This document shows positions 30,531 through 41,543 of a stretch of 64,000 bases of DNA, in pieces; position 1 is the first letter of the stretch; each line of letters opens with the position of its first letter. Source of the DNA: an uncultured Verrucomicrobiae bacterium (GTDB lineage: Bacteria > Verrucomicrobiota > Verrucomicrobiia > Limisphaerales > Palsa-1400); NCBI GenBank assembly GCA_963707025.1, contig CAVPOM010000002.1, forward strand, positions 71,877 through 135,876, given 5' to 3'. The position numbers and the translations under genes were made by a program. The notes beneath the pieces were generated by a model, which saw only the letters and a program-made list of their open reading frames with translations, searched no databases and had not been told where the DNA came from.

Positions 30531-31838
30531 TCAAATCAGCAATGGGAACAACCGCCTTGCACCAGCTTGGCGAAGCCTGGGCGCCGAACTGAGCAAAGCG
30601 GGAATCCGCTCCATCCAAAACTCAACGCCCGCAAATAGTTTGACAGTGAAATCTCGCGCGAACAACTGCCCCTTCCGCATCTTCGCCCGCTTCTCCTTCG
30701 GGCAGGTCGCCATGCGATAACGGCGCATTACCCGGCGCAGCTTCAACGCCTGCCCATTCGTCAACTCCAGAACATCCCGGCGACCAAGAGGCAGATTCTT
30801 ACGGCCCACAATGCCCCAAAACCGCCCCGGCTTCGCAGACCAAATACACTCGCCAGTCTTCGCAACATACTTCTTCGCCGCATACGCGAAGGCACCGCGC
30901 TTCGAGCCAAGCGTTTGAACCGACGTGCCCGCCCGATAATGCTTCACCTCGCCGCTCCCCACCACGTCATACCAATTCCTCGCAAACCAATTCGCAATCG
31001 AATCCCCGTTCACGACAGACGGACACTTGCCATGCGGCTCTACTCGGATGGCACCCCACCCTTCGCGCTCATCCACCAGGGCGCTATGACCCTCCACCCA
31101 TGCACTCCCGCCCAAAACATCCTCATCCCAAACCACCACAGTGCCCACCATCCGGCGGCGCAAACGAACTTGCTCCGTCTGCATGGTCTTCCACTCAAAA
31201 CCCCACGGCACGCCCCAGACAAACGCATGGATATGCGGCGCGATCTTCCCCTTGTTCACCCCGCTTTTACGAGGCTGAAATTCCAGCTTCCACATCAAAC
31301 AACCGTCAGGGAACCGGCGGGCAAACCGTTTGGACAACGTATCAATGTGCCGCTTCACCTGTTCGCCATCCCAGGCGTAACGGTCAAACTCATCAGGATA
31401 CGTCAGACCCGCCATGAACGGCACCGCACCATCATCCACCTTCGCCAAGTAATCCAACATCCGCCGCCGTGACGCCGCCGTGAACTCCTCGATTTCGCCA
31501 CGCTCACCACCGCGACGCTCAGGACCGCGCAGATGTCCCTCAGAACGGCAGCGCAACTGCATGAAGCTCGCGTTGCGATAAACTTGCAACATGCCATTGC
31601 TCGTATTTGGCGGTGAATTATGCACCTTAGACAAGCCAGGTGGAACGCATGGGGTCGGCGGCCAGGCGGCCGGTGAACCGTCCACCTGGCCACCGACCCG
31701 CATTGCGGCCACAACGGCGGCAGCCTGCTCGAAAGTAGTGACCGGGGAGGAATCGAAGGAATCATTGCGCACGATCCACCCCCAAACGCGAAGCCTCAAG
31801 GAAAGCTGGCCCTCCCGCATCGTCCGTTGACACCACAT
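30531..31838 (-). CDS. Rolling-circle replication initiator (HUH endonuclease); start uncertain
   Basis: Motif I (LTYP), motif II (WKLEFQ...PHIH), motif III (YAAKKY) and GRFWG. Confidence 0.8.
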   Translation of the reverse strand: MWCQRTMREGQLSLRLRVWGWIVRNDSFDSSPVTTFEQAAAVVAAMRVGGQVDGSPAAWPPTPCVPPGLSKVHNSPPNTSNGMLQVYRNASFMQLRCRSEGHLRGPERRGGERGEIEEFTAASRRRMLDYLAKVDDGAVPFMAGLTYPDEFDRYAWDGEQVKRHIDTLSKRFARRFPDGCLMWKLEFQPRKSGVNKGKIAPHIHAFVWGVPWGFEWKTMQTEQVRLRRRMVGTVVVWDEDVLGGSAWVEGHSALVDEREGWGAIRVEPHGKCPSVVNGDSIANWFARNWYDVVGSGEVKHYRAGTSVQTLGSKRGAFAYAAKKYVAKTGECIWSAKPGRFWGIVGRKNLPLGRRDVLELTNGQALKLRRVMRRYRMATCPKEKRAKMRKGQLFARDFTVKLFAGVEFWMERIPALLSSAPRLRQAGARRLFPLLI

Positions 31839-32242
31839 TCCGCCGCAGAACCGGCGAGCAGTGGTGCTCGCTGTCCGGTTCTGCTCGATTTACTTCGCCG
31901 CCATGCCGCTCTGCTGTCACTGGCCCCCCTTCTCAGTGGCCGTGCTGGCAATGGCGAGGATTGCGGCCTTGAGCGCCACGTTGAGCCGGGGCCATGCCTT
32001 GACTACTTGGGACAGGTCATGTAAGGAAGTGACCGGAGTTTGTGAGTCTCCTTGTGAGTCTCGCGCTGTAACTCCTTGATAATCAGCAGGCGGAGGCAGG
32101 TTCAAATCCTGTCGCTCCGACCATTCAACGATCAATGGCTTGCGCAGGCTTTCTCAAGCCGGATGAAAGCCCATTGCCACTTCTATGTCGGTTTCCCCGT
32201 CAGAGGCGGCCAGCGGCCGACTTCATCGTCTGCAACGCCAGC

Positions 32243-33481: not shown

Positions 33482-34066
33482 TCATTCCCGCACGAACAGC
33501 TTCCACTCCGGAATTCCATGCGCGTTGCGGATGAGGGCCGAGGCGGGCAGTTCCCTGGGCGCGCGCGGCAGCCTGAGCAATTTCAGGCCGGCTTCGTGCG
33601 GCAGGCGGTTGCCTTTGCGGGCGTTAATGTCTTTGCCGGCCCAAACCAGGTTTTCCCAGGCGTTCTTGCCGCCGCGCGAACGGGGCAGGACGTGGTCCAG
33701 GCTGCCGTCTTCGGGGCGCAGGACGCGGCCGGTGTACTGGCAGCGGTTGCCGTCGCGCTCGCGAATGGCGCGGGCGCAGAGCTTCGGGCGCTTCTTGGGC
33801 ACCTTGGCGTAGTTCACCGCCACGATCACCGTGGGCACGCGGATGGGACCGCGCACGGTCCGCACCGCGTTGTCCTGCGGACGGATGGGCAGCGTGATCC
33901 ACTCCTCCCAAGTCACGGGGCGGATGTGATTTTGACCTTCGATTTCCAGAGCGGTCGCCACGTTCGTCGCCATCATGCAGAAGGCTTCCTGCGGCGTGCG
34001 GACGTTGACGGCCTGCCAGTTGCGGTTGAGCACCAGCACCAGCGCTTTGTTCAGTATGTCATTCAT
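33482..34066 (-). CDS. HNH endonuclease directly downstream of the tRNA array
   Basis: VLVLNRNW, RDGNRCQYTG, SLDHVLPRSRGG, WENLV and NARKGN motifs. Confidence 0.92.
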   Translation of the reverse strand: MNDILNKALVLVLNRNWQAVNVRTPQEAFCMMATNVATALEIEGQNHIRPVTWEEWITLPIRPQDNAVRTVRGPIRVPTVIVAVNYAKVPKKRPKLCARAIRERDGNRCQYTGRVLRPEDGSLDHVLPRSRGGKNAWENLVWAGKDINARKGNRLPHEAGLKLLRLPRAPRELPASALIRNAHGIPEWKLFVRE

Positions 34067-34191: not shown

Positions 34192-34266
34192 TGGCTGCCC
34201 CGCCTGGTTTTGCTCCGGGTCCTCCGGCGTCAGAGACCGGCGCACTCCTGATGATGCAACGAGGCA
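34192..34266 (-). tRNA. tRNA-Gln(CTG), atypical
   Basis: CCGGT-CTCTGAC-GCCGG; T-loop AGCAAAA; CCA. Confidence 0.8.
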
Positions 34267-34348
34267 TCCGTGTGCATGGTCAATATTTGTCAATCAATTG
34301 ACAAGATATGGTTAGCCTGCCTTGCTCGCAGCCGGGATATTGGGACGC

Positions 34349-34594
34349 ATGATAATGATGAATCATATAGAGACAGGTGTTGCAGCCGAATGGCCGCCCA
34401 CGTCGAACCGCGCCGGCCGGATCGTTCCAGCCGCAAGGCCGGGAAGTTGGACTGGCCTCGCGGTTGCATGGCACGCGGCCATCAGTTATCTCGTGCCGAT
34501 TGGTTATGAAGACGCAACCGGATTCCATTACGGCGGGATGCCCGTGTCGAATACCGCAGCGAGCTTCCGCCAACCCGCTGTCAGGAACTGGTAG
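34349..34594 (+). CDS. Small protein with PxGYEDxTGFHYG motif
   Basis: Motif I recall from small Verrucomicrobia proteins (not verified); antisense to the array. Confidence 0.55.
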   Translation: MIMMNHIETGVAAEWPPTSNRAGRIVPAARPGSWTGLAVAWHAAISYLVPIGYEDATGFHYGGMPVSNTAASFRQPAVRNW

Positions 34595-34661
34595 CCCGTG
34601 CTGGTAATTCTCCAGCGTCCGCAGTTTGTAGGACTGCCGCTCTGAATTTGAGCTAACGGGC
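34589..34661 (-). tRNA. tRNA-Val(TAC)
   Basis: GCAGT-CCTACAA-ACTGC; T-loop AGAATTA; CCA. Confidence 0.85.
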
Positions 34662-34668
34662 TGCAAAT

Positions 34669-34742
34669 TGGCTGCCGGGGCTGGAATTGCACCAGCATAA
34701 GCGCCTTCAAAGGGCGCTGTCCTACGATTAGACGACCCGGCA
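34669..34742 (-). tRNA. tRNA-Gln(TTG)
   Basis: GCGCC-CTTTGAA-GGCGC; T-loop TGCAATT; CCA. Confidence 0.9.
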
Positions 34743-34849
34743 CGGGGAAAGGCTAAAGGCTAAAGGCTGAAGGCTGAATAAAGTACCAATAACCTGTCTC
34801 TGATGTCTTTACTTTAGCCTTTGGCCTTTAGCCTTCAGACTTTCAAAAG

Positions 34850-34923
34850 TGGTGGCCCGCCAGGGTAACGCTCCCTGTTCAACGGCTTAAAAGACCGTTG
34901 CATCACTTTAATGCTTGCAGGCC
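34850..34923 (-). tRNA. tRNA-Lys(TTT)
   Basis: ACGGT-CTTTTAA-GCCGT; T-loop AGCGTTA; CCA. Confidence 0.88.
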
Positions 34924-34967
34924 GTGGCAATTGCGGACTGGCGATTGCGGTTTGCGATGGGATTAGT

Positions 34968-35249
34968 CGGGGCGTTATGTAACGGCATGTAACGGCATGT
35001 AACGGGGCGTAACGGGACCAATTCAGGTGCAAGTAACTGTTGATCAATTGTTTATAGAAATGTAACGGGCGTAACGGCCAAAAGGGTATTTCCCGCTGGA
35101 AAATGACAAGGCGGGGCGTTATGTAACGGCATGTAACGGCATGTAACGGGGCGTAACGGGACTAATTCCAGTGCAAGCAACTGTGGCTCAACGGCTTGCA
35201 GAAATGCAACGGTTGTAACGGCCAAAAGAGCACTTCCCGCTGGAAAATG
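34968..35249. repeat. Imperfect tandem duplication (period 144 nt) rich in GTAACGG
   Basis: Copies at 34968-35105 and 35112-35249. Confidence 0.85.
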
Positions 35250-35325
35250 GAGCCTCCAGCCGGCGATGCTCCGGCATTATTTCTTTACAAAAGAAATCCG
35301 TCCCGATGGATCGGGACATGGAGGC
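35248..35325 (-). tRNA. tRNA-Thr(TGT), extended D hairpin
   Basis: TTTCT-TTTGTAA-AGAAA; D arm GTCCCGAT-CC-ATCGGGAC; CCA. Confidence 0.75.
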
Positions 35326-35368
35326 GAAAAGATTGCCGACCCGCCCGCCGTAACTCGCGGAGCGAAGG

Positions 35369-35441
35369 CGGTTCGCAGTCCCCAGTGCTGCCCTGGGCAG
35401 AGCGGGCGTATGAAACCTGCCTGAGCGCTGGCTCGACTGCG
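35369..35441 (-). tRNA. tRNA-Met(CAT)-like, degenerate
   Basis: Acceptor CGCAGTC/GACTGCG, loop TTCATAC, small D arm, no intact CCA. Confidence 0.6.
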
Positions 35442-35567
35442 CGGCGCGCATGGCCGTCCCGGCGGAGGGCTGCACACGGCCGAAAATGGCGTCCTTGACC
35501 GGCTTCGCTCCCGCCTCAGAAGCGACGGCGGGCAGCCTTCGCCACCTTTGGCGAAGGTGGCGAAGGC

Positions 35568-35659
35568 TGGTGCGCGCGTCCGGTAACGCTCCGGAACCCG
35601 GCACTCATCTAGTGCGATGCGGGGTATAAGGCCGCCGGCTCTCTTTGAGCTACGCGCGC
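35568..35659 (-). tRNA. tRNA with TAT (Ile) anticodon and long variable arm
   Basis: GCGCGCG acceptor, loop CTTATAC, V arm GCACT-AGATG-AGTGC, A73-CCA. Confidence 0.8.
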
Positions 35660-35763
35660 GAAAATGGCCTGGCAGCCGCAGCGGCGCAAGACCAACGGCA
35701 AAGCCCACCTTCGCTGAAGCTGCGGCCGGCAGCCTTCTCCACCTGCGCACAGGTGGCAGAGGC

Positions 35764-35855
35764 TGGCGGAATGCCGTGGATTTGCGCCACACCCCCATTT
35801 CCAGGAGCGCACTGTTTAGCAAACAGGCCCGGCTCACTCGTCCGGTTGACATTCC
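35764..35855 (-). tRNA. tRNA-Ser(GCT), 8/4 fold
   Basis: GGAATGTC/GGCATTCC acceptor, GTGG/CCAC T stem, long V arm, G73-CCA. Confidence 0.85.
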
Positions 35856-35891
35856 AGATTGGCTTGCCCGCCGGAGCTGGCAAGCAAAGGA

Positions 35892-35975
35892 GGGTCGGCG
35901 TGGGGAGACTTGCACCCCCAAGGCTGCCAGATTCTGAGTCTGGACCCTCTGCTGTTCGGGTTAAACCACATGCCC
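35892..35975 (-). tRNA. tRNA-Leu(CAG)-like, degenerate, short variable region
   Basis: CCAGA-CTCAGAA-TCTGG; mismatched acceptor; ends in CCC. Confidence 0.6.
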
Positions 35976-35982
35976 GTGAAAT

Positions 35983-36058
35983 TGGCACTCCCGGAAGGAC
36001 TCTCACCCTCATCTCCGACGTTCGAAGCGTCGCGCTCTGGTGATTGAGCTACGGGAGC
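35983..36058 (-). tRNA. tRNA-Arg(TCG)
   Basis: CGACG-CTTCGAA-CGTCG; T-loop TGAGAGT; CCA. Confidence 0.88.
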
Positions 36059-36066
36059 ATTGCAAT

Positions 36067-36140
36067 TGGTGAGTTGCCACGGATTCGCACCGTGCTCTGC
36101 GGTTTAAGAGACCGCTGCATCGCGGCAATGCTTGCAACCC
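36067..36140 (-). tRNA. tRNA-Lys(CTT)
   Basis: GCGGT-CTCTTAA-ACCGC; T-loop TGCGAAT; CCA. Confidence 0.9.
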
Positions 36141-36309
36141 GAACGCGACACGAAGGCGGAGTTGAATCCCGATTCCGAATCGGGACACCGGTGTTCGCGT
36201 CGCGTGAAGTGATCCCAAGCGAACTGAGTCTGGCGTGCGGCGGCTGGCCGCGCGCAAGCCCCTTCGACCGCGCGGGGTCCCTGCCGGCAGGCCGGATTCA
36301 CTTGGGAAA

Positions 36310-36384
36310 TGGACGGGCATCAGGGTAGCGCGCCCTGTATTCCGGTTTGGAAAACCGGCGTGTGTCTCTCAACACTTATGCCCG
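36310..36384 (-). tRNA. tRNA-Gly(TCC)
   Basis: CCGGT-TTTCCAA-ACCGG; T-loop CGCGCTA; U73-CCA. Confidence 0.85.
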
Positions 36385-36403
36385 AGTAAGAAAGCGGTTG
36401 CCG

Positions 36404-37921
36404 TCAGCGGGGTGCCGGGGACGGTTCTTTCGCCACAAAGCTATCGGCGCTCCCGGGGTCGCCGCTCCCTTTATATATCGCGGTCGTGGGGTAGCGAAAA
36501 AGAGGCCTCGTCATCTGGATTTTGCCGTTGTTGCTTTTGGAGGCGATGACTCTGTCAGGAGGATGGCCGTGTTCCACCCAATCCACCATGACGGCAAGCC
36601 AGTCCACCTCACTTGCGCCAGGCCCGCCGCCGCAATGGAGGCAGCCCGGAACCATGAAGAGCCGGCAGTAGTCGCTGGCGTTGGGATCGCGCGCCTGTAC
36701 TTGACGATAATAATTGATGGTGGCTTGCGGCGGCAGCGCCGGATCGGCCCATCCGTGCCAAAGGATGAGTCTGCCCTTTCGCGCCTTCAGGCCATCCAAG
36801 TTGATGTTGGTCGCGTCGAGAAAGGAGGCGGCCAGCCGCGTCTGGGCCGCAAAATTTGAAAAATCGCAGGTCGAATAATTCCAATCAGGATTATTGAAGA
36901 CCAGGTATTTGAAGATCTGAGTGCCGAAGGCAAAAAGCAGATCGGGGGCATGATCCTGGGCGAGTTGCGGCGCTGGTCCGACAATCCACGCAATCCACTG
37001 GGCAGGATCGCATTCCGCGCCGGGCGTGTAGCCGGGATAAATTGGCCCTTGCTCGTTGCGGGCGCCCGCGTAAATGGCCTCGATGGCTTTGCGCTGTTCG
37101 TCGGTTAACCCGGCCACTTTGGACAAGTCGAAGTGCGCGGAAGGCGGATCTTGCACGACGCCGTCCTTCAGACCGTCTTGCCCGTCGCATTGCTCGATAA
37201 TGGCCTGCTGCAACTTCTGGAGGCTCTCTCTATCGAGCACGGTTTTATCGAGATGGCCAGGGTCCGGGTAAAGCGCCTTCTCTATGGACACGGCGTTGGC
37301 GGCCAAGCCCGGCCAGTCAAACGCCGGCGCGCCGGCCACAATCCCGTCGAAGTCCATTGGATACCGCTGCGCCTCCATCATGGCCTGGCCTCCGCCGCGC
37401 GAGCAACCTGTGAAATAGCAGTAGGCGGCGTCCGCGCCGTAATAACTGCGGATAAGAGCCTTGGCCACTTCGGCCGTGCGATGCACCGCGAGATGACCGA
37501 AATTGACCTGCGCCTCCAAGTCGTCGAGCGCCCAACCGGCCATGTAGCCGGGTTGCCACTCGTGCCCGGCGTCGGTCCCGACCGTCGCGTAGCCGTGATT
37601 GACCGAACCCAGAGCCGAGTTCTGCACCGTTCCGACAAACCCGCCGCCGCCTCCCATCACGAAGCGCCCATTCCACGAATCCGGCAGCAGCAACTCAAAA
37701 CGGATGTGGCCCCCAATGACGCCCTCCACCTTGACAGCCGCGGCATGAAGATTTCCCACGAGGGCCGGAGCCACCGGCGTGGCCGATTCCAAAACCACGT
37801 CCGGCAAGCGCACCTGCCGCAGGTTCTCAACGGTGATGTGATTGGTCAATTGGCCTGACGCATCGGCGCTGCCGCACAGCACGGCCAGACAGGCGAGGAA
37901 ACTTCGTTTGACGTGTTGCAT
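36404..37921 (-). CDS. Tannase/feruloyl esterase family hydrolase
   Basis: Signal peptide; WNGRF, GCSRGG, HGWAD and PGCLHCGGG motifs. Confidence 0.92.
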   Translation of the reverse strand: MQHVKRSFLACLAVLCGSADASGQLTNHITVENLRQVRLPDVVLESATPVAPALVGNLHAAAVKVEGVIGGHIRFELLLPDSWNGRFVMGGGGGFVGTVQNSALGSVNHGYATVGTDAGHEWQPGYMAGWALDDLEAQVNFGHLAVHRTAEVAKALIRSYYGADAAYCYFTGCSRGGGQAMMEAQRYPMDFDGIVAGAPAFDWPGLAANAVSIEKALYPDPGHLDKTVLDRESLQKLQQAIIEQCDGQDGLKDGVVQDPPSAHFDLSKVAGLTDEQRKAIEAIYAGARNEQGPIYPGYTPGAECDPAQWIAWIVGPAPQLAQDHAPDLLFAFGTQIFKYLVFNNPDWNYSTCDFSNFAAQTRLAASFLDATNINLDGLKARKGRLILWHGWADPALPPQATINYYRQVQARDPNASDYCRLFMVPGCLHCGGGPGASEVDWLAVMVDWVEHGHPPDRVIASKSNNGKIQMTRPLFRYPTTAIYKGSGDPGSADSFVAKEPSPAPR

Positions 37922-38050
37922 AACTGCCGGTCATTACACCTCGCGACAGTGAACCTGGCAATCTCTTTCGGCCAGCCTCGCCACTATTCGAAAGCGTGTT
38001 CGGCAAGGTCGCGCTTGTCAGGTTTCGGTCCGCGGACGCATCATGTTTGC

Positions 38051-38812
38051 ATGACGATTCCGATGGAGTTGCTGCAACGCCTGGCCGCCGCCAAAAGCGT
38101 GACCGTGCTGACGGGCGCGGGCGTGTCAGCGGAAAGCGGTGTCCCCACATTTCGCGACGCCCGAACCGGGCTGTGGGCGAAATTCAGCCCCGAAGAACTG
38201 GCCACGCCGCGCGCCTTCCGGCGAAATCCCCGCCTGGTTTGGGAATGGTATGAATGGCGGCGTGAGCTTGTCGCCGGCGCAAAGCCAAACCCGGCGCACT
38301 TTGCGCTGGCAGAAATGGAGAAGGTTGTGCCGCGGTTCCATCTCATCACGCAAAACGTGGATGGCCTGCATCAATGCGCTGGAAACCGGAGCGTCATCGA
38401 ATTGCACGGCAATATCATGCGCACCAAATGCTTTGAGGAAGGCACGCTGGTTTCGAGTTGGAAAGACACCGGCAACGTCCCGCCGAAATGTCCAGCCTGT
38501 GGCGGCTGGTTGCGCCCCGACGTGGTTTGGTTCGAGGAGCCGATGCCGCAAGCGGAGATGGCACAGGCCGCGACGGCCAGCACGACATGCGATGTCTTTT
38601 TTTCCATCGGCACGTCCACCGTTGTTTATCCCGCGGCTGCCCTGCCAGCGGAAGCATTGCGCAGCGGCGCGACCGTGGTGGAGATCAATCCGCAGCCCAC
38701 CCCATTCACCCCGCAGGCGCATTTCGCTCTGGCTGGCGCGGCCGGAGTTGTGTTGCCCGAATTGGTGAAGGCGCTCGACGCCATGCGCGGTGGGCTGCGT
38801 GCGTCGTCGTAA
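38051..38812 (+). CDS. cobB: NAD-dependent deacylase (Sir2/CobB family)
   Basis: TGAGVSAESGVPTFR, TQNVDGLH, ELHG, LRPDVVWF and GTS motifs. Confidence 0.92.
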   Translation: MTIPMELLQRLAAAKSVTVLTGAGVSAESGVPTFRDARTGLWAKFSPEELATPRAFRRNPRLVWEWYEWRRELVAGAKPNPAHFALAEMEKVVPRFHLITQNVDGLHQCAGNRSVIELHGNIMRTKCFEEGTLVSSWKDTGNVPPKCPACGGWLRPDVVWFEEPMPQAEMAQAATASTTCDVFFSIGTSTVVYPAAALPAEALRSGATVVEINPQPTPFTPQAHFALAGAAGVVLPELVKALDAMRGGLRASS

Positions 38813-38864
38813 GCCCGCCTCCGCTCTGCGAGCCGCGGCGGGAGACCTTTGTTGTGGCGAAGGT

Positions 38865-38939
38865 TGGAATCCCGTGTGGGGGTCGCACCCACCTGCGTGG
38901 TTTTGCAGACCACTGCCTCGGCTGCTCGGCCAACGGGAT
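38865..38939 (-). tRNA. tRNA-Cys(GCA)
   Basis: GTGGT-CTGCAAA-ACCAC; U73-CCA. Confidence 0.9.
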
Positions 38940-39077
38940 GTGAAATCAGAAGTGCGGGCGGAAGCTTCCGCCTCCGCCCGCCTTAGTTGCCTCTTGGCGT
39001 CGTTCCATCGGATTTCAATGTGCCGCCTCGCCCGGTTCCGTCTTCGCATTGGCCGGTGGCGTGATACAAATTGAAAT

Positions 39078-39152
39078 TGGGGTGACCAACCGGAGTTGCA
39101 CCGGCACAAACGCCGTCACGGGCCGTGATGCTGCTGTTACATCATGATCACC
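39078..39152 (-). tRNA. tRNA-His(GTG)
   Basis: Loop CCGTGAC; G-1:C73; CCA. Confidence 0.85.
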
Positions 39153-39257
39153 ATAAAAAAGTGCCGAGTGAAGATTGCAGAGTGCAGAGTGGGAAATGCC
39201 ATTGGGCACCTGCTACTTTCCACTCCGCACTCTGCACTCTGCACTCTCCACTTCAAA

Positions 39258-39333
39258 TGGAGCCCCCGGCCGGACTCGCACCGGCGAATACGAGTTTACG
39301 AAACTCGCCCTGTTGCTGCTGAGGCACAGGGGC
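39258..39333 (-). tRNA. tRNA-Thr(CGT)
   Basis: CGAGT-TTCGTAA-ACTCG; CCA. Confidence 0.88.
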
Positions 39334-39426
39334 GTGAAAGAAAGTATGACGGCTGAAGGCTAAAGGCTAAAGTAAAGACATTTGGATTTTAGCCTTCAGC
39401 CTTTAGCCTTTAGCCTTTCCCAACAC

Positions 39427-39504
39427 TGGCGCTCTCACATGGATTTGCACCATGAGCCTCCGCCTTCGCAAGGCGGCGTGCAGATCTAATTACACCTTGA
39501 GAGC
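39427..39504 (-). tRNA. tRNA-Arg(GCG)
   Basis: CCGCC-TTGCGAA-GGCGG; G73-CCA. Confidence 0.85.
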
Positions 39505-39507
39505 AAA

Positions 39508-39585
39508 TGGCGTCCGTGGCCGGACTCGCACCGGCTAGGACCAGCTTGAAGGACTGGATGCGCGAGCTGCTTTGCATTCACGGAC
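39508..39585 (-). tRNA. tRNA-Glu(TTC)
   Basis: CCAGT-CCTTCAA-GCTGG; CCA. Confidence 0.85.
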
Positions 39586-39606
39586 TAATTGCGCAGGGCC
39601 AGGAGT

Positions 39607-39681
39607 CGGCCCCCGAGGTTGGTATCGCGCCAACGTCTCCTCCTCTTCAGGGAGGTGCTAATCTGCCTCAGCTACCCGGGG
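39607..39681 (-). tRNA. tRNA-Phe(GAA)
   Basis: CCTCC-CTGAAGA-GGAGG; ends in CCG. Confidence 0.78.
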
Positions 39682-39690
39682 AAATGACTC

Positions 39691-39767
39691 GGTAGGGCGA
39701 GACTCCGTCGAGCCGTGACTCGATTTCATGGGATAAATTCAGGGTTCGAACAGAGTCTCACCCTACC
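39691..39767. repeat. REP-like hairpin (GGTAGGG...CCCTACC)
   Basis: ggtagggcgagactccgtcgagcc / ggttcgaacagagtctcaccctacc. Confidence 0.7.
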
Positions 39768-39778
39768 TGGAAAAAGTA

Positions 39779-39849
39779 TCGTCCCGGCAGGTAACGCTCC
39801 TGCTTCTTCCGGTTATCAACCGGAGGCTCTGCTTTTGAGCTACGAGACG
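39779..39849 (-). tRNA. tRNA-Ile(GAT)
   Basis: TCCGG-TTGATAA-CCGGA; CCA not encoded. Confidence 0.82.
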
Positions 39850-39995
39850 TTGGTCAATTGGGGCTTCACGCCGAACCGATGCACGGGGCGGAACACCAGA
39901 TTCAGCTTCGCGGTCGGTCGGATTCGAATGCCACGGCTTGGCTTATAACTTCTGCGGAACAGAAGTTGACTTTGATTGCGACGGGCGATTTTCAT
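39840..39995 (-). CDS. Putative 51-aa basic peptide inside the tRNA array
   Basis: AAAGGA 7 nt before ATG; MKIARRNQSQLLFRRSYKPSRGIRIRPTAKLNLVFRPVHRFGVKPQLTNVS. Confidence 0.45.
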   Translation of the reverse strand: MKIARRNQSQLLFRRSYKPSRGIRIRPTAKLNLVFRPVHRFGVKPQLTNVS

Positions 39996-40021
39996 CGGGT
40001 TTCCTTTCGTTGAGGTTTAAT

Positions 40022-40112
40022 TGGCGAAAGGCGTCGGTAACGCTCCGACCTCGGGTTTGAGCCGATCCTGTTTTCGGGACAGGCGCAGCCAGCTTGTATC
40101 TGCCTGCCTTCC
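40022..40112 (-). tRNA. tRNA-Ser(CGA)
   Basis: CCTGT-CCCGAAA-ACAGG; long V arm; G73-CCA. Confidence 0.88.
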
Positions 40113-40209
40113 ATGAGTGCAGAATTGGGATTGTAGAATGCAGAATAGGAAATCATTTGTGGCTTCATGGAGCATTCCTCACTTTGCATTCTGCACTCTG
40201 CATTTAAAA

Positions 40210-40283
40210 TGGCTGCCAGACTTGGACTCGCACCAAGACAAGCGGCTTAACAGGCCGCCGTGCTACTTTGACACCACCTGGCA
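40210..40283 (-). tRNA. tRNA-Asn(GTT)
   Basis: GCGGC-CTGTTAA-GCCGC; CCA. Confidence 0.9.
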
Positions 40284-40346
40284 ATGGCGCTGCCGGCAGG
40301 ATTCTCACCTGCAGCCTTCGCCCGCCGGCACGCAGCAGGCGAAGGC

Positions 40347-40434
40347 TGGTGGGAAGTGCTGGTAATGCTCCAGTCGTCGCTTCCAGCTTGTTTGAAGACA
40401 CCGGATTTACAGGCCGGCAGCCGGATCACTTCCC
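40347..40434 (-). tRNA. tRNA-Tyr(GTA)-like lacking a D arm
   Basis: GGGAAGTG/CACTTCCC acceptor, 9-nt linker, loop CTGTAAA, long V arm, A73-CCA. Confidence 0.75.
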
Positions 40435-40440
40435 TGAAAT

Positions 40441-40513
40441 TGGTAGCGGGGGTGGGAGTCGCGCCCACGGAGGCTGAGCTTATGGGGCTCGCCTGAATCT
40501 CATTCTCCCCGCA
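40441..40513 (-). tRNA. tRNA-Met(CAT), initiator-like
   Basis: U1:U72 mismatch, GCGGGG/CCCCGC acceptor, loop CCCATAA, small D arm, CCA. Confidence 0.75.
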
Positions 40514-40618
40514 GTGAAAAGGCCTGGCAGCCGTGGCGGCGCAGGACGAAGCATCAGCCCGCCGTCGCTAAAGCCATGGCGGCCAGCCTTCGCCCGCCGC
40601 TATGCAGCGGGCGAAGGC

Positions 40619-40693
40619 TGGTGGAGTCGGTGGGTAACGCTCCCACATCAGCTTGCTTGCAGGGCAAATGCATTGCTTGTCTGCCACGACCCC
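40619..40693 (-). tRNA. tRNA-Ala(TGC)
   Basis: G3:U70 pair; loop CCTGCAA; CCA. Confidence 0.88.
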
Positions 40694-40700
40694 ATGAAAT

Positions 40701-40772
40701 TGGCAGGCTGCCTCCGTGCCGCCCGGAGTGGGCTGAGTTTTGGAGACCCGGCCGCGTGCTGACGCGCAGCCT
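40701..40772 (-). tRNA. tRNA-Trp(CCA), small D arm
   Basis: AGGCTGC/GCAGCCT acceptor; loop CTCCAAA; G73-CCA. Confidence 0.75.
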
Positions 40773-40783
40773 GCAAAAGAAGT

Positions 40784-40857
40784 TGGTGCGGCTGCCGGGA
40801 GTTGCGCCCGGACTTCCTCCGTGGCGGGGAGGCATTCTGCTGTTAAATCACAACCGC
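40784..40857 (-). tRNA. tRNA-Gly(GCC), first gene of the array
   Basis: CCTCC-CCGCCAC-GGAGG; A73-CCA. Confidence 0.85.
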
Positions 40858-40905
40858 GGAAATTAAAAGGGCCGGGCGCGTTGCTGCGCCCGGCCCATGC
40901 CATTT

Positions 40906-40923
40906 CAACAAAGAACAAACACC
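40906..40923 (-). promoter_or_regulatory. boxA-like leader sequence, complementary to the array trailer at 34145-34162
   Basis: Minus strand reads GGTGTTTGTTCTTTGTTG; perfect 18-bp inverted copy at the other end of the array. Confidence 0.65.
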
Positions 40924-40980
40924 TCTTGGCGATCTATTCGATCCCAACCCGCGGTTTCACGGCGGCTGTTTCGGTGTTTA

Positions 40981-41038
40981 GCCCTTCGACTCCGCGCGTC
41001 GCGCGTCGCTCAGGGCTAACCCTGAGCTTGCCGAAGGG
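40981..41038. repeat. REP-like repeat (CCCTTCGAC...CTCAGGG...CCCTGAG...CGAAGGG)
   Basis: Nested palindromes seen directly. Confidence 0.65.
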
Positions 41039-41275
41039 TTTTAGGGGCACACCTCCTATAAAGCCCTTGATATGTAAATCTAAAATTCGTCTCGTCCATC
41101 CTGGTGACGCTGTTCTTCTGGTCGTGGGCAGAACCCACCGGTGAGGTTTCTCCGCTCATCCTCGCCAAATTCAATTTATTGCCAGAAGACATCATCAAGA
41201 TGTCGCTTTGTTCTTGTTTACAGATTATCCGTCTTTCATTGTTAATCGTTCCCATTCATGCTGTTCAGCGATAAT

Positions 41276-41307
41276 AAAAAACCCTGCTTGCATTTCGGCA
41301 AGCAGGG
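41276..41307 (-). terminator. Intrinsic terminator (attenuator) upstream of the tRNA array
   Basis: CCCTGCTTGC-CGAAAT-GCAAGCAGGG-TTTTTT. Confidence 0.9.
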
Positions 41308-41330
41308 CGGAGAAAGTTCTGTTTCGTTCG

Positions 41331-41501
41331 TTACCTGCTTGCCAGGAGTCCATCCAACTTGACCTGTTGTTCCGATGCGGTGCTGGATAGGCTAAGGCCA
41401 AACACACTACCCCGGTTATACCGGTTATGACGTGTCCCAATGGTCATTGGGGCCGCCGTAATCGGCCAACTCGCGGTTGATATGTTTAAGCAAGCTTTCA
41501 T
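41331..41501 (-). CDS. Putative 56-aa attenuator leader peptide
   Basis: MKACLNISTASWPITAAPMTIGTRHNRYNRGSVFGLSLSSTASEQQVKLDGLLASR*; lies between the promoter and the terminator; its last codons form the antiterminator strand. Confidence 0.75.
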   Translation of the reverse strand: MKACLNISTASWPITAAPMTIGTRHNRYNRGSVFGLSLSSTASEQQVKLDGLLASR

Positions 41502-41514
41502 TGAACTTATAAGA

Positions 41515-41543
41515 AGGGTATCATGCCCTGTTTATTTCGTCAA
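41515..41543 (-). promoter_or_regulatory. Sigma70-like promoter of the tRNA array
   Basis: TTGACG-17 nt-TACCCT with extended -10 TG and AT-rich upstream region; ATG 13 nt downstream. Confidence 0.7.

Follow-up and report, generated by a model that had tools for sequence, protein, structure and literature searches.

We analysed a 64,000-nucleotide (nt) stretch of DNA (the window) from an uncultured Verrucomicrobiae bacterium of the order Limisphaerales (contig CAVPOM010000002.1), in which a short upstream open reading frame (uORF1) and an intrinsic terminator (T1) precede a long array of tRNA genes on the minus strand. A promoter-like site lies at 41515..41543, with the -35 hexamer TTGACG at 41543-41538, a 17-nt spacer, and an extended -10 element (TG-n-TACCCT, with TACCCT at 41520-41515), followed after 13 nt by the ATG of uORF1. 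The predicted 5′ untranslated region of uORF1 is about 6-7 nt long and lacks a Shine-Dalgarno (SD) sequence. The two hexamers match 5 + 3 of 12 consensus letters, and this promoter was not listed in a sigma-70 scan of the window; the -35/TGn-TA arrangement was found 12-13 nt upstream of the ATG in 30/65 homologs by a strict pattern. The uORF1 frame (41331..41501) has 56 sense codons, the last three of which carry the antiterminator strand (41334..41343), whose helix was picked by RNAalifold. T1 (41276..41308) has an 11-bp stem and a U run and starts 23 nt past the uORF1 stop; its 5′ arm (41306-41297) matches the antiterminator (41343-41334) over 10 bp. The tRNA array (34192..40857) begins with tRNA-Gly(GCC). 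Each of these elements had been listed in an initial annotation made from the sequence alone, and all were found on the minus strand. The order given there, with a boxA between T1 and the array, holds, and the boxA-like word was located about 360 nt past T1, behind a second conserved unit that had gone unnoticed and that contains a second frame (uORF2) and a structured RNA motif.

An Rfam scan of the window matched tRNAs only and no T-box or other leader family, Rfam at E ≤ 1 with the leader and motif of 5 loci returned nothing credible, and a Pfam/NCBIfam search gave zero matches for uORF1 or uORF2. The upstream word ATCCGGATATTTGAATT recurs, in the window at 41620-41545 and in homolog promoters, and GTAAC/CGTC words sit inside many homolog promoters and are mostly missing from the window promoter core; these recurrent words suggest an additional protein regulator. 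Contigs from RNA runs, representing relatives only (shares at most 0.08), span from about 41500 downward across T1, with none upstream; this coverage was not used as evidence, because the DNA further upstream lacks conservation and starts cannot be read from contigs.

A single selected open reading frame (ORF) proves little, and therefore uORF1 was evaluated comparatively across homologs. The 581-nt leader matched 120/401 genomes of the order, many of them partially. The same genome holds a second, intact leader and array on another contig (G000:C8:72279-82906), with both units kept, and a further array fragment lies at G000:C4:150761-153834. A DNA profile search of 59 returned loci, 60 fetched regions, and two stretches of the genome itself gave 118 matches, 108 of them distinct and with a start. 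Removal of 4 weak matches, 3 cut by contig ends, and one each with a frameshift (L045), no terminator (L087), and a mis-called start (L110) left 98 complete, distinct uORF1 homologs of 48-61 codons. The distance from the uORF1 stop to the T1 arm was 19-29 nt, and exactly 23 nt in 46/99, and the other five frames of the leaders were stop-free in just 0-8%. A check set beforehand, that homologous arrays should retain uORF1 and the antiterminator, was borne out: with uORF2 as the anchor, uORF1 was present in 72/75 loci having T1, T1 standing without the ORF at the other 3. This anchor yielded 37 new leaders, some with mis-called starts. Anchoring on the motif gave 139 loci, of which 57 were too short upstream, 18 lacked the pattern terminator, 4 were duplicates, and 60 supplied new ORFs. 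Among those 18, the three with at least 5 tRNAs downstream do have a terminator and a 20-amino-acid ORF, and the others have 0-1 tRNA downstream.

Twenty leaders below 65% identity formed 15 distant clusters, four of which visibly still belong to the main family; several distant leaders are from other orders of the class, and two are from viral contigs. The latter (L355 and L357) have leaders of 51 and 55 codons that encode 20 amino acids, and 13 tRNAs follow within 1.5 kb; these contigs may represent phages or mobile DNA that was sorted wrongly. In the viral contigs searched, the motif gave 3 matches, and neither a uORF2 relative nor a close terminator pattern was found. A 400-genome sample of the phylum, with only 2 of the listed genomes in the same order, gave no convincing uORF1 match (one, at 6e-4, had 3 stops); the motif was not found in the same sample, by a search whose fixed 2-base gap misses 1-base forms. 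Named records of the leader system are mostly Verrucomicrobiota, several being Limisphaerales or Pedosphaera, and the layout of a leader and a spare tRNA cluster occurs in many soil and peat bacteria.

Coverage of amino acids and codon classes

The window uORF1 encodes 20 amino acids with 44 distinct codons, including all six kinds of Leu codon and all four of Gly, each once, and no codon is used more than 3 times. A recount gave the same 40/45 NNY/NNA/NNG classes as the initial annotation, with the same five absent (CCY, CGA, AGA, GTA, and GAG); when codons are grouped into the 32 half-boxes NNY, NNR, ATA, and ATG, 31 are present, without CCY. The earlier expectation of about 37 distinct codons also agrees with the uniform-codon null for 56 codons (36.8 ± 2.4), under which the probability of at least 44 distinct codons is 0.002 and that of at least 40 classes is 2e-5. 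Of 21,480 host-gene windows, 0 reached 44 distinct codons, and the class count of the window uORF1 given its peptide had p = 0.002.

Across the homologs, all 20 amino acids were present in 80/98 uORF1 sequences (25/37 at <80% identity and 14/22 at <70%), compared to 8.6% under uniform codons, 3% of host genes, and 0-18% for the other five frames; the prediction that diversity would exceed its null was thus upheld. The conserved neighbour uORF2, of similar length and in the same leaders, had 20 amino acids in 1/68. A tree-aware simulation of 56 gap-free leaders (effective n about 19), with independent columns having their own codon profiles, gave 0.25 ± 0.13 relative to the 0.67 observed, a value reached in 0/400 runs. 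Complete sets were also found in 26/37 of the new uORF2-anchored leaders, in 42/60 of the held-out motif-anchored leaders (4.4 expected), and in 8 of the 15 distant clusters (0.8 expected). Codons 2 to n-5 alone held 20 amino acids in 74% of leaders, compared to 3% expected.

Most uORF1 sequences carry a single codon for each of Trp, Phe, Tyr, and Asp, and the loss of an amino acid at its canonical position was compensated elsewhere. At <80% identity, where the canonical residue was lost, another was found in 10/13 leaders for Trp (4/24 among the remainder), 10/13 for Asp (4/24), 9/9 for His (13/28), and 17/20 for Tyr (1/17); for Phe the counts were 6/9 and 6/28. On a tree made from downstream DNA, in which 55/65 leaders were placed, these relocations are spread over several separate lineages. 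Val is the amino acid most frequently missing from distant leaders. From these comparisons, we consider it very likely that the amino-acid completeness of uORF1 is under selection.

The uORF1 homologs contained a mean of 30.5/32 half-boxes, whereas 26.6 ± 1.7 were expected, and all 32 were present in 29/98. Given the peptide, the expected value was 29.0 (at <70% identity, 29.2 observed and 28.2 expected), and 37% of leaders were at the attainable maximum, compared to 5% under the null. The uORF2 sequences showed zero excess by the same measure (27.5 vs. 27.7), and the 15 distant clusters together had 426 half-boxes vs. 380 ± 7. ATA was retained in 88/98 leaders (0.90), separately from ATY, and codon pairs ending in A or G were covered as pairs, not individually. 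The count over 61 codons was 41.3, vs. 38.8 after synonymous shuffling; it was rejected as the main statistic, the signal being weak after this shuffling. The unit maintained therefore appears to be the amino acids and NNY/NNR half-boxes, not the 61 codons. The initial proposal that the leader polls nearly every codon survives for the 20 amino acids and the half-boxes, and the 61-codon excess in divergent leaders is small; because the signal at that level is weak, "pan-tRNA-class" fits better than "pan-codon". Enrichment in rare codons was dropped as a specific uORF1 trait, the share in uORF2 being identical, and uORF2 was rejected as a second pan-sensor on its amino-acid count.

Pairing of the antiterminator with T1

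An antiterminator/arm helix of 6-12 bp, ending at or near the uORF1 stop, was found in 98/98 leaders, and the RNA consensus fold contains this helix and little else. Within the order, the antiterminator is mostly invariant. In distant leaders, the antiterminator and T1 arm strands change together: the duplex of a leader's own strands scored -21.0, vs. -15.5 for swapped strands (0/20,000 permutations) and -9.4 for a mid-ORF control. The covariation proposed in the initial annotation was thus found between distant leaders and is weak within the order.

In a folding model of the transcript up to the T1 arm, with an assumed ribosome footprint size, the antiterminator helix formed with a probability of about 0.9 when no ribosome was present or when the A site was at least 9 codons before the stop, of 0.6-0.8 when it was 6-8 codons before the stop (0.8 at 7-8), and of 0 within 4 codons. 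Without a ribosome, the helix probability was at least 0.7 in 33/37 leaders, and a protector hairpin was not predicted. Stalls in the last 5 or so codons of uORF1 would therefore still mask the antiterminator, leaving a blind zone. The original statement that a stall at any codon gives read-through is accordingly narrowed by the model to stalls at least 7 codons before the stop. Stop-to-terminator distances, a possible indicator of transcription-translation coupling in this genome, could be taken for just 26 terminators among 3107 ORFs, 3 of them within 12 nt.

The second unit, the array, and neighbouring genes

The second unit occupies 41237-40860 on the minus strand of the window (345-691 in the homolog L007). 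It begins with an SD-like GAAAG and a mini-ORF of 8-9 codons (41195..41237), which starts with GTG in most homologs and GTA in the window; the TGA of the mini-ORF overlaps the ATG of uORF2, and a hairpin (41204-41188) covers the uORF2 start. The uORF2 frame (41016..41195) has 62-65 codons in homologs, where it stops 8-16 nt upstream of the boxA-like word, and is intact in 74/84 scored homologs; in the window, one extra base near 41113, which relatives lack, shifts its frame. The conserved structured RNA motif, GGAGGTGTGCC...AAACACCGAAAC...GTGAAA (40925..41062), has an internal AGGAGG and no Rfam family, and is split in the window by a 63-nt palindromic insertion (40977-41039). Similar in-frame inserts occur at the same motif site in L003 and L216, and the motif was also found without a leader or tRNAs in L218, L223, L227, L241, and L246. 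The word GTTTGTTCTTTG (40909..40920), which we take to be boxA-like, is nearly invariant in the homolog alignment. Directly before the first tRNA is a hairpin with a T-rich tail (T2, 40860..40896), a candidate weak terminator or processing site. Distant loci retain the motif and boxA-like word, not uORF2. Our guess is that a ribosome coming close to boxA would gate antitermination of the Nus type.

At a relaxed score, 23 minus-strand tRNAs were called in the array, one of them inside an inserted gene and probably false; most are low-scoring, and at default scores ARAGORN called 10 and Rfam 7. Similar long hairpins follow the 3′ ends of several array tRNAs. The array is a co-oriented, supernumerary cluster alongside a housekeeping set. 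It is interrupted by a tannase/feruloyl esterase gene (36404-37921, minus strand) and by an opposing Sir2 deacylase gene (37913-38812, plus strand), and an HNH endonuclease gene (33482..34066, minus strand) lies at its end. The window copy may be decaying, given the damaged second unit and the two genes that break up the array; its uORF1 and T1 remain intact. A 435-amino-acid ORF (30531-31838, minus strand), possibly encoding a replication protein of a small integrated element, adjoins tRNA-like remnants near 32100.

The homolog arrays are syntenic (Gly, Ala, Met, Asp, Pro, Arg, Asn, Ser, Ile, Phe...), and the distance from the uORF1 ATG to their first tRNA is often about 575 nt. Genes for SPFH (18/80), RtcB (13/80), HNH (12/80), and Ro60 (10/80) proteins were present at related loci, and leaders without an array often sit before RtcB or SPFH.

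Interpretation and known systems

A model is proposed in which transcription begins a few bases upstream of uORF1. A ribosome keeping pace to the last 5 or so codons would cover the antiterminator, T1 would form, and transcription would end; with a ribosome stalled earlier, or never loaded, the antiterminator would capture the emerging T1 5′ arm, and transcription would read through into the array, with which RtcB, Ro60, HNH, and SPFH genes would come. Selection would retain at least one codon per amino acid and for most NNY/NNR half-boxes, and read-through could therefore follow when nearly any tRNA became scarce, mischarged, or cleaved, or when ribosomes were inhibited. The leader is real and conserved and very probably a translated attenuator, and it is likely that this ribosome-sensing attenuator keeps its amino-acid and half-box coverage and controls the spare tRNA array. 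Trouble with almost any tRNA, by cleavage or starvation, would probably stall the ribosome and turn the cluster on; whether single tRNA classes are sensed is evenly balanced.

Several observations weigh against this interpretation. Related leaders are not independent, as the effective sample of the tree-aware simulation indicates, and column shuffles give uORF2 a small excess too (18.30 vs. 17.95). The synonymous excess fades with divergence (38.4 vs. 37.8; z 0.3-0.6 in divergent leaders), one antisense frame reaches 39.2 distinct codons compared to the 41.3 of uORF1, and the rare-codon share is equal in uORF1 and uORF2 (0.21). GTR is confined to the blind last codons or missing in 39/98 leaders, and Val is absent from 5 distant leaders (L224, L225, L226, L229, and L222). 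Leaders with at least 4 tRNAs within 3 kb had 20 amino acids in 52/57 and those without in 11/23 (18 were too short to score); this higher completeness where an array follows speaks for the model, but array loss is confounded with divergence in the comparison. Close-range covariation is weak, an antiterminator U>C change being compensated in 6 leaders and mismatched in 8. The second unit of the window is broken (GTA start, extra base, and insertion) and its array interrupted. The full-length RNA at equilibrium favours T1, and therefore the choice of the switch would be kinetic and would need transcription-translation coupling.

The same switch could serve a general translation-rate attenuator of the whiB7/toiL type, responding mainly to antibiotics or ribosome damage, with coverage selected at the level of amino acids and not isoacceptors; the difference lies in what is sensed. 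This is consistent with an amino-acid signal much stronger than the codon signal, with the low z of the synonymous shuffle in divergent sets, with a half-box excess given the peptide of about one box, and with the coverage of A/G-ending codons as pairs. However, that half-box excess is consistent and absent from uORF2, ATA is kept apart from ATY, and the window classes are high given the peptide, and we regard this explanation as unlikely.

A functional or arrest peptide whose diversity was inherited from one ancestor would explain the recognisable consensus within the order (48% mean column identity), yet Met1 is the sole invariant residue, codon positions 1/2/3 vary alike (0.14/0.17/0.19), and the Trp, Asp, His, and Tyr positions move. 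Distant leaders (39-61 codons) score 0.32-0.45 against the family, near the shuffled baseline (0.30, maximum 0.39), yet hold 19-20 amino acids; we judge a peptide function very improbable. It is equally improbable that the leader is an untranslated structured RNA (a riboswitch, T-box-like, or protein-bound switch) with the open frame as a by-product: some clades allow hairpins to be drawn locally, the ATG lacks an SD, and the words in and before the promoter point to a further protein regulator, whereas the consensus fold has little beyond the antiterminator helix, no Rfam match was found, length changes preserve the frame, and the diversity is confined to that reading frame.

On a broader version of the attenuator, to which we give even odds, the leader would have evolved to take a census of the tRNA pool, with almost all decoding classes represented by one codon each. 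If an anticodon nuclease or toxin cleaved any one tRNA species, a full replacement set would be induced together with repair by RtcB/Ro60; the mini-ORF, uORF2, motif, and boxA would form a second ribosome-coupled step that licenses processive transcription of the array; and similar leaders may have re-arisen in phages. The proposed attenuator would explain how silent tRNA arrays outside cyanobacteria sense failing translation without a protein regulator, and would be a case of coding-sequence selection for completeness of the codon set and not for a peptide. A 230-nt cis element would then report shortage of almost any aminoacyl-tRNA and could find general use as a sensor that detects tRNA nucleases, inhibitors of synthetases, and starvation; 20 amino acids within 40-60 codons before a terminator would be a search signature for such sensors elsewhere.

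The trp, his, and leu attenuators have a leader peptide with runs of one codon and a mutually exclusive antiterminator and terminator, and their protector hairpin causes termination when there is no translation. The present leader shares the leader peptide and the exclusive pairing; it differs in using single codons of each kind, and a protector hairpin is not predicted for it. The toiL uORF of Escherichia coli topAI likewise senses several ribosome-targeting stresses through one uORF, and it controls a toxin gene through translation initiation and Rho termination and encodes no Ala, Ser, or Thr (PMC12121999), in contrast to the intrinsic terminator before a tRNA array and the near-full amino-acid set found here.

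L-arrays are long supernumerary tRNA arrays that adjoin HNH and rtcB genes; translational stress induces them (PMC8421152), and they occur in Verrucomicrobia among other phyla (PMC8421152, PMC10272220). The window array is like them in being long and supernumerary with an HNH gene at its end, and HNH and rtcB neighbours are present at related loci. In Anabaena, the trn operon is controlled by promoter repeats and the TrcR repressor (PMC8421152, PMC10272220). The terms "attenuat-" and "leader" are absent from the main texts of both papers, "terminat-" and "boxA" from that of PMC8421152, and "uORF" from that of PMC10272220. In titles and abstract openings, mostly outside subscription papers, no tRNA array was described as lying behind a leader-peptide attenuator. 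The claim that no such system had been described thus stands for the pairing with an array in the literature searched; it does not extend to the polarity of the switch, which is that of the actinobacterial whiB7/wblC uORF.

In the whiB7 system, full translation of the uORF leads to termination and stalling to antitermination, and the encoded amino acids determine the inducing shortages, as shown by Trp-less and His-less variants (10.1101/2023.06.02.543512). The whiB7 uORF of Mycobacterium smegmatis has 19 amino acids and that of M. tuberculosis lacks several; coverage differs among species, Ala is enriched, and the target is a transcription factor (10.1101/2023.06.02.543512). In both systems, the uORF end overlies an antiterminator just before an intrinsic terminator, and antitermination occurs without or with a stalled ribosome (here, in the folding model). 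Relative to that published description, the present leader is set apart by completeness that is conserved, restored, and reaches half-boxes, by an Ala content (4.5/56) close to its codon share, and by a target consisting of tRNA supply and RNA-repair genes, with tRNAs, RtcB, and SPFH downstream. By this analogy, the switch logic is already known from whiB7, and its pairing with a tRNA array may be regarded as a variant of uORF attenuation.
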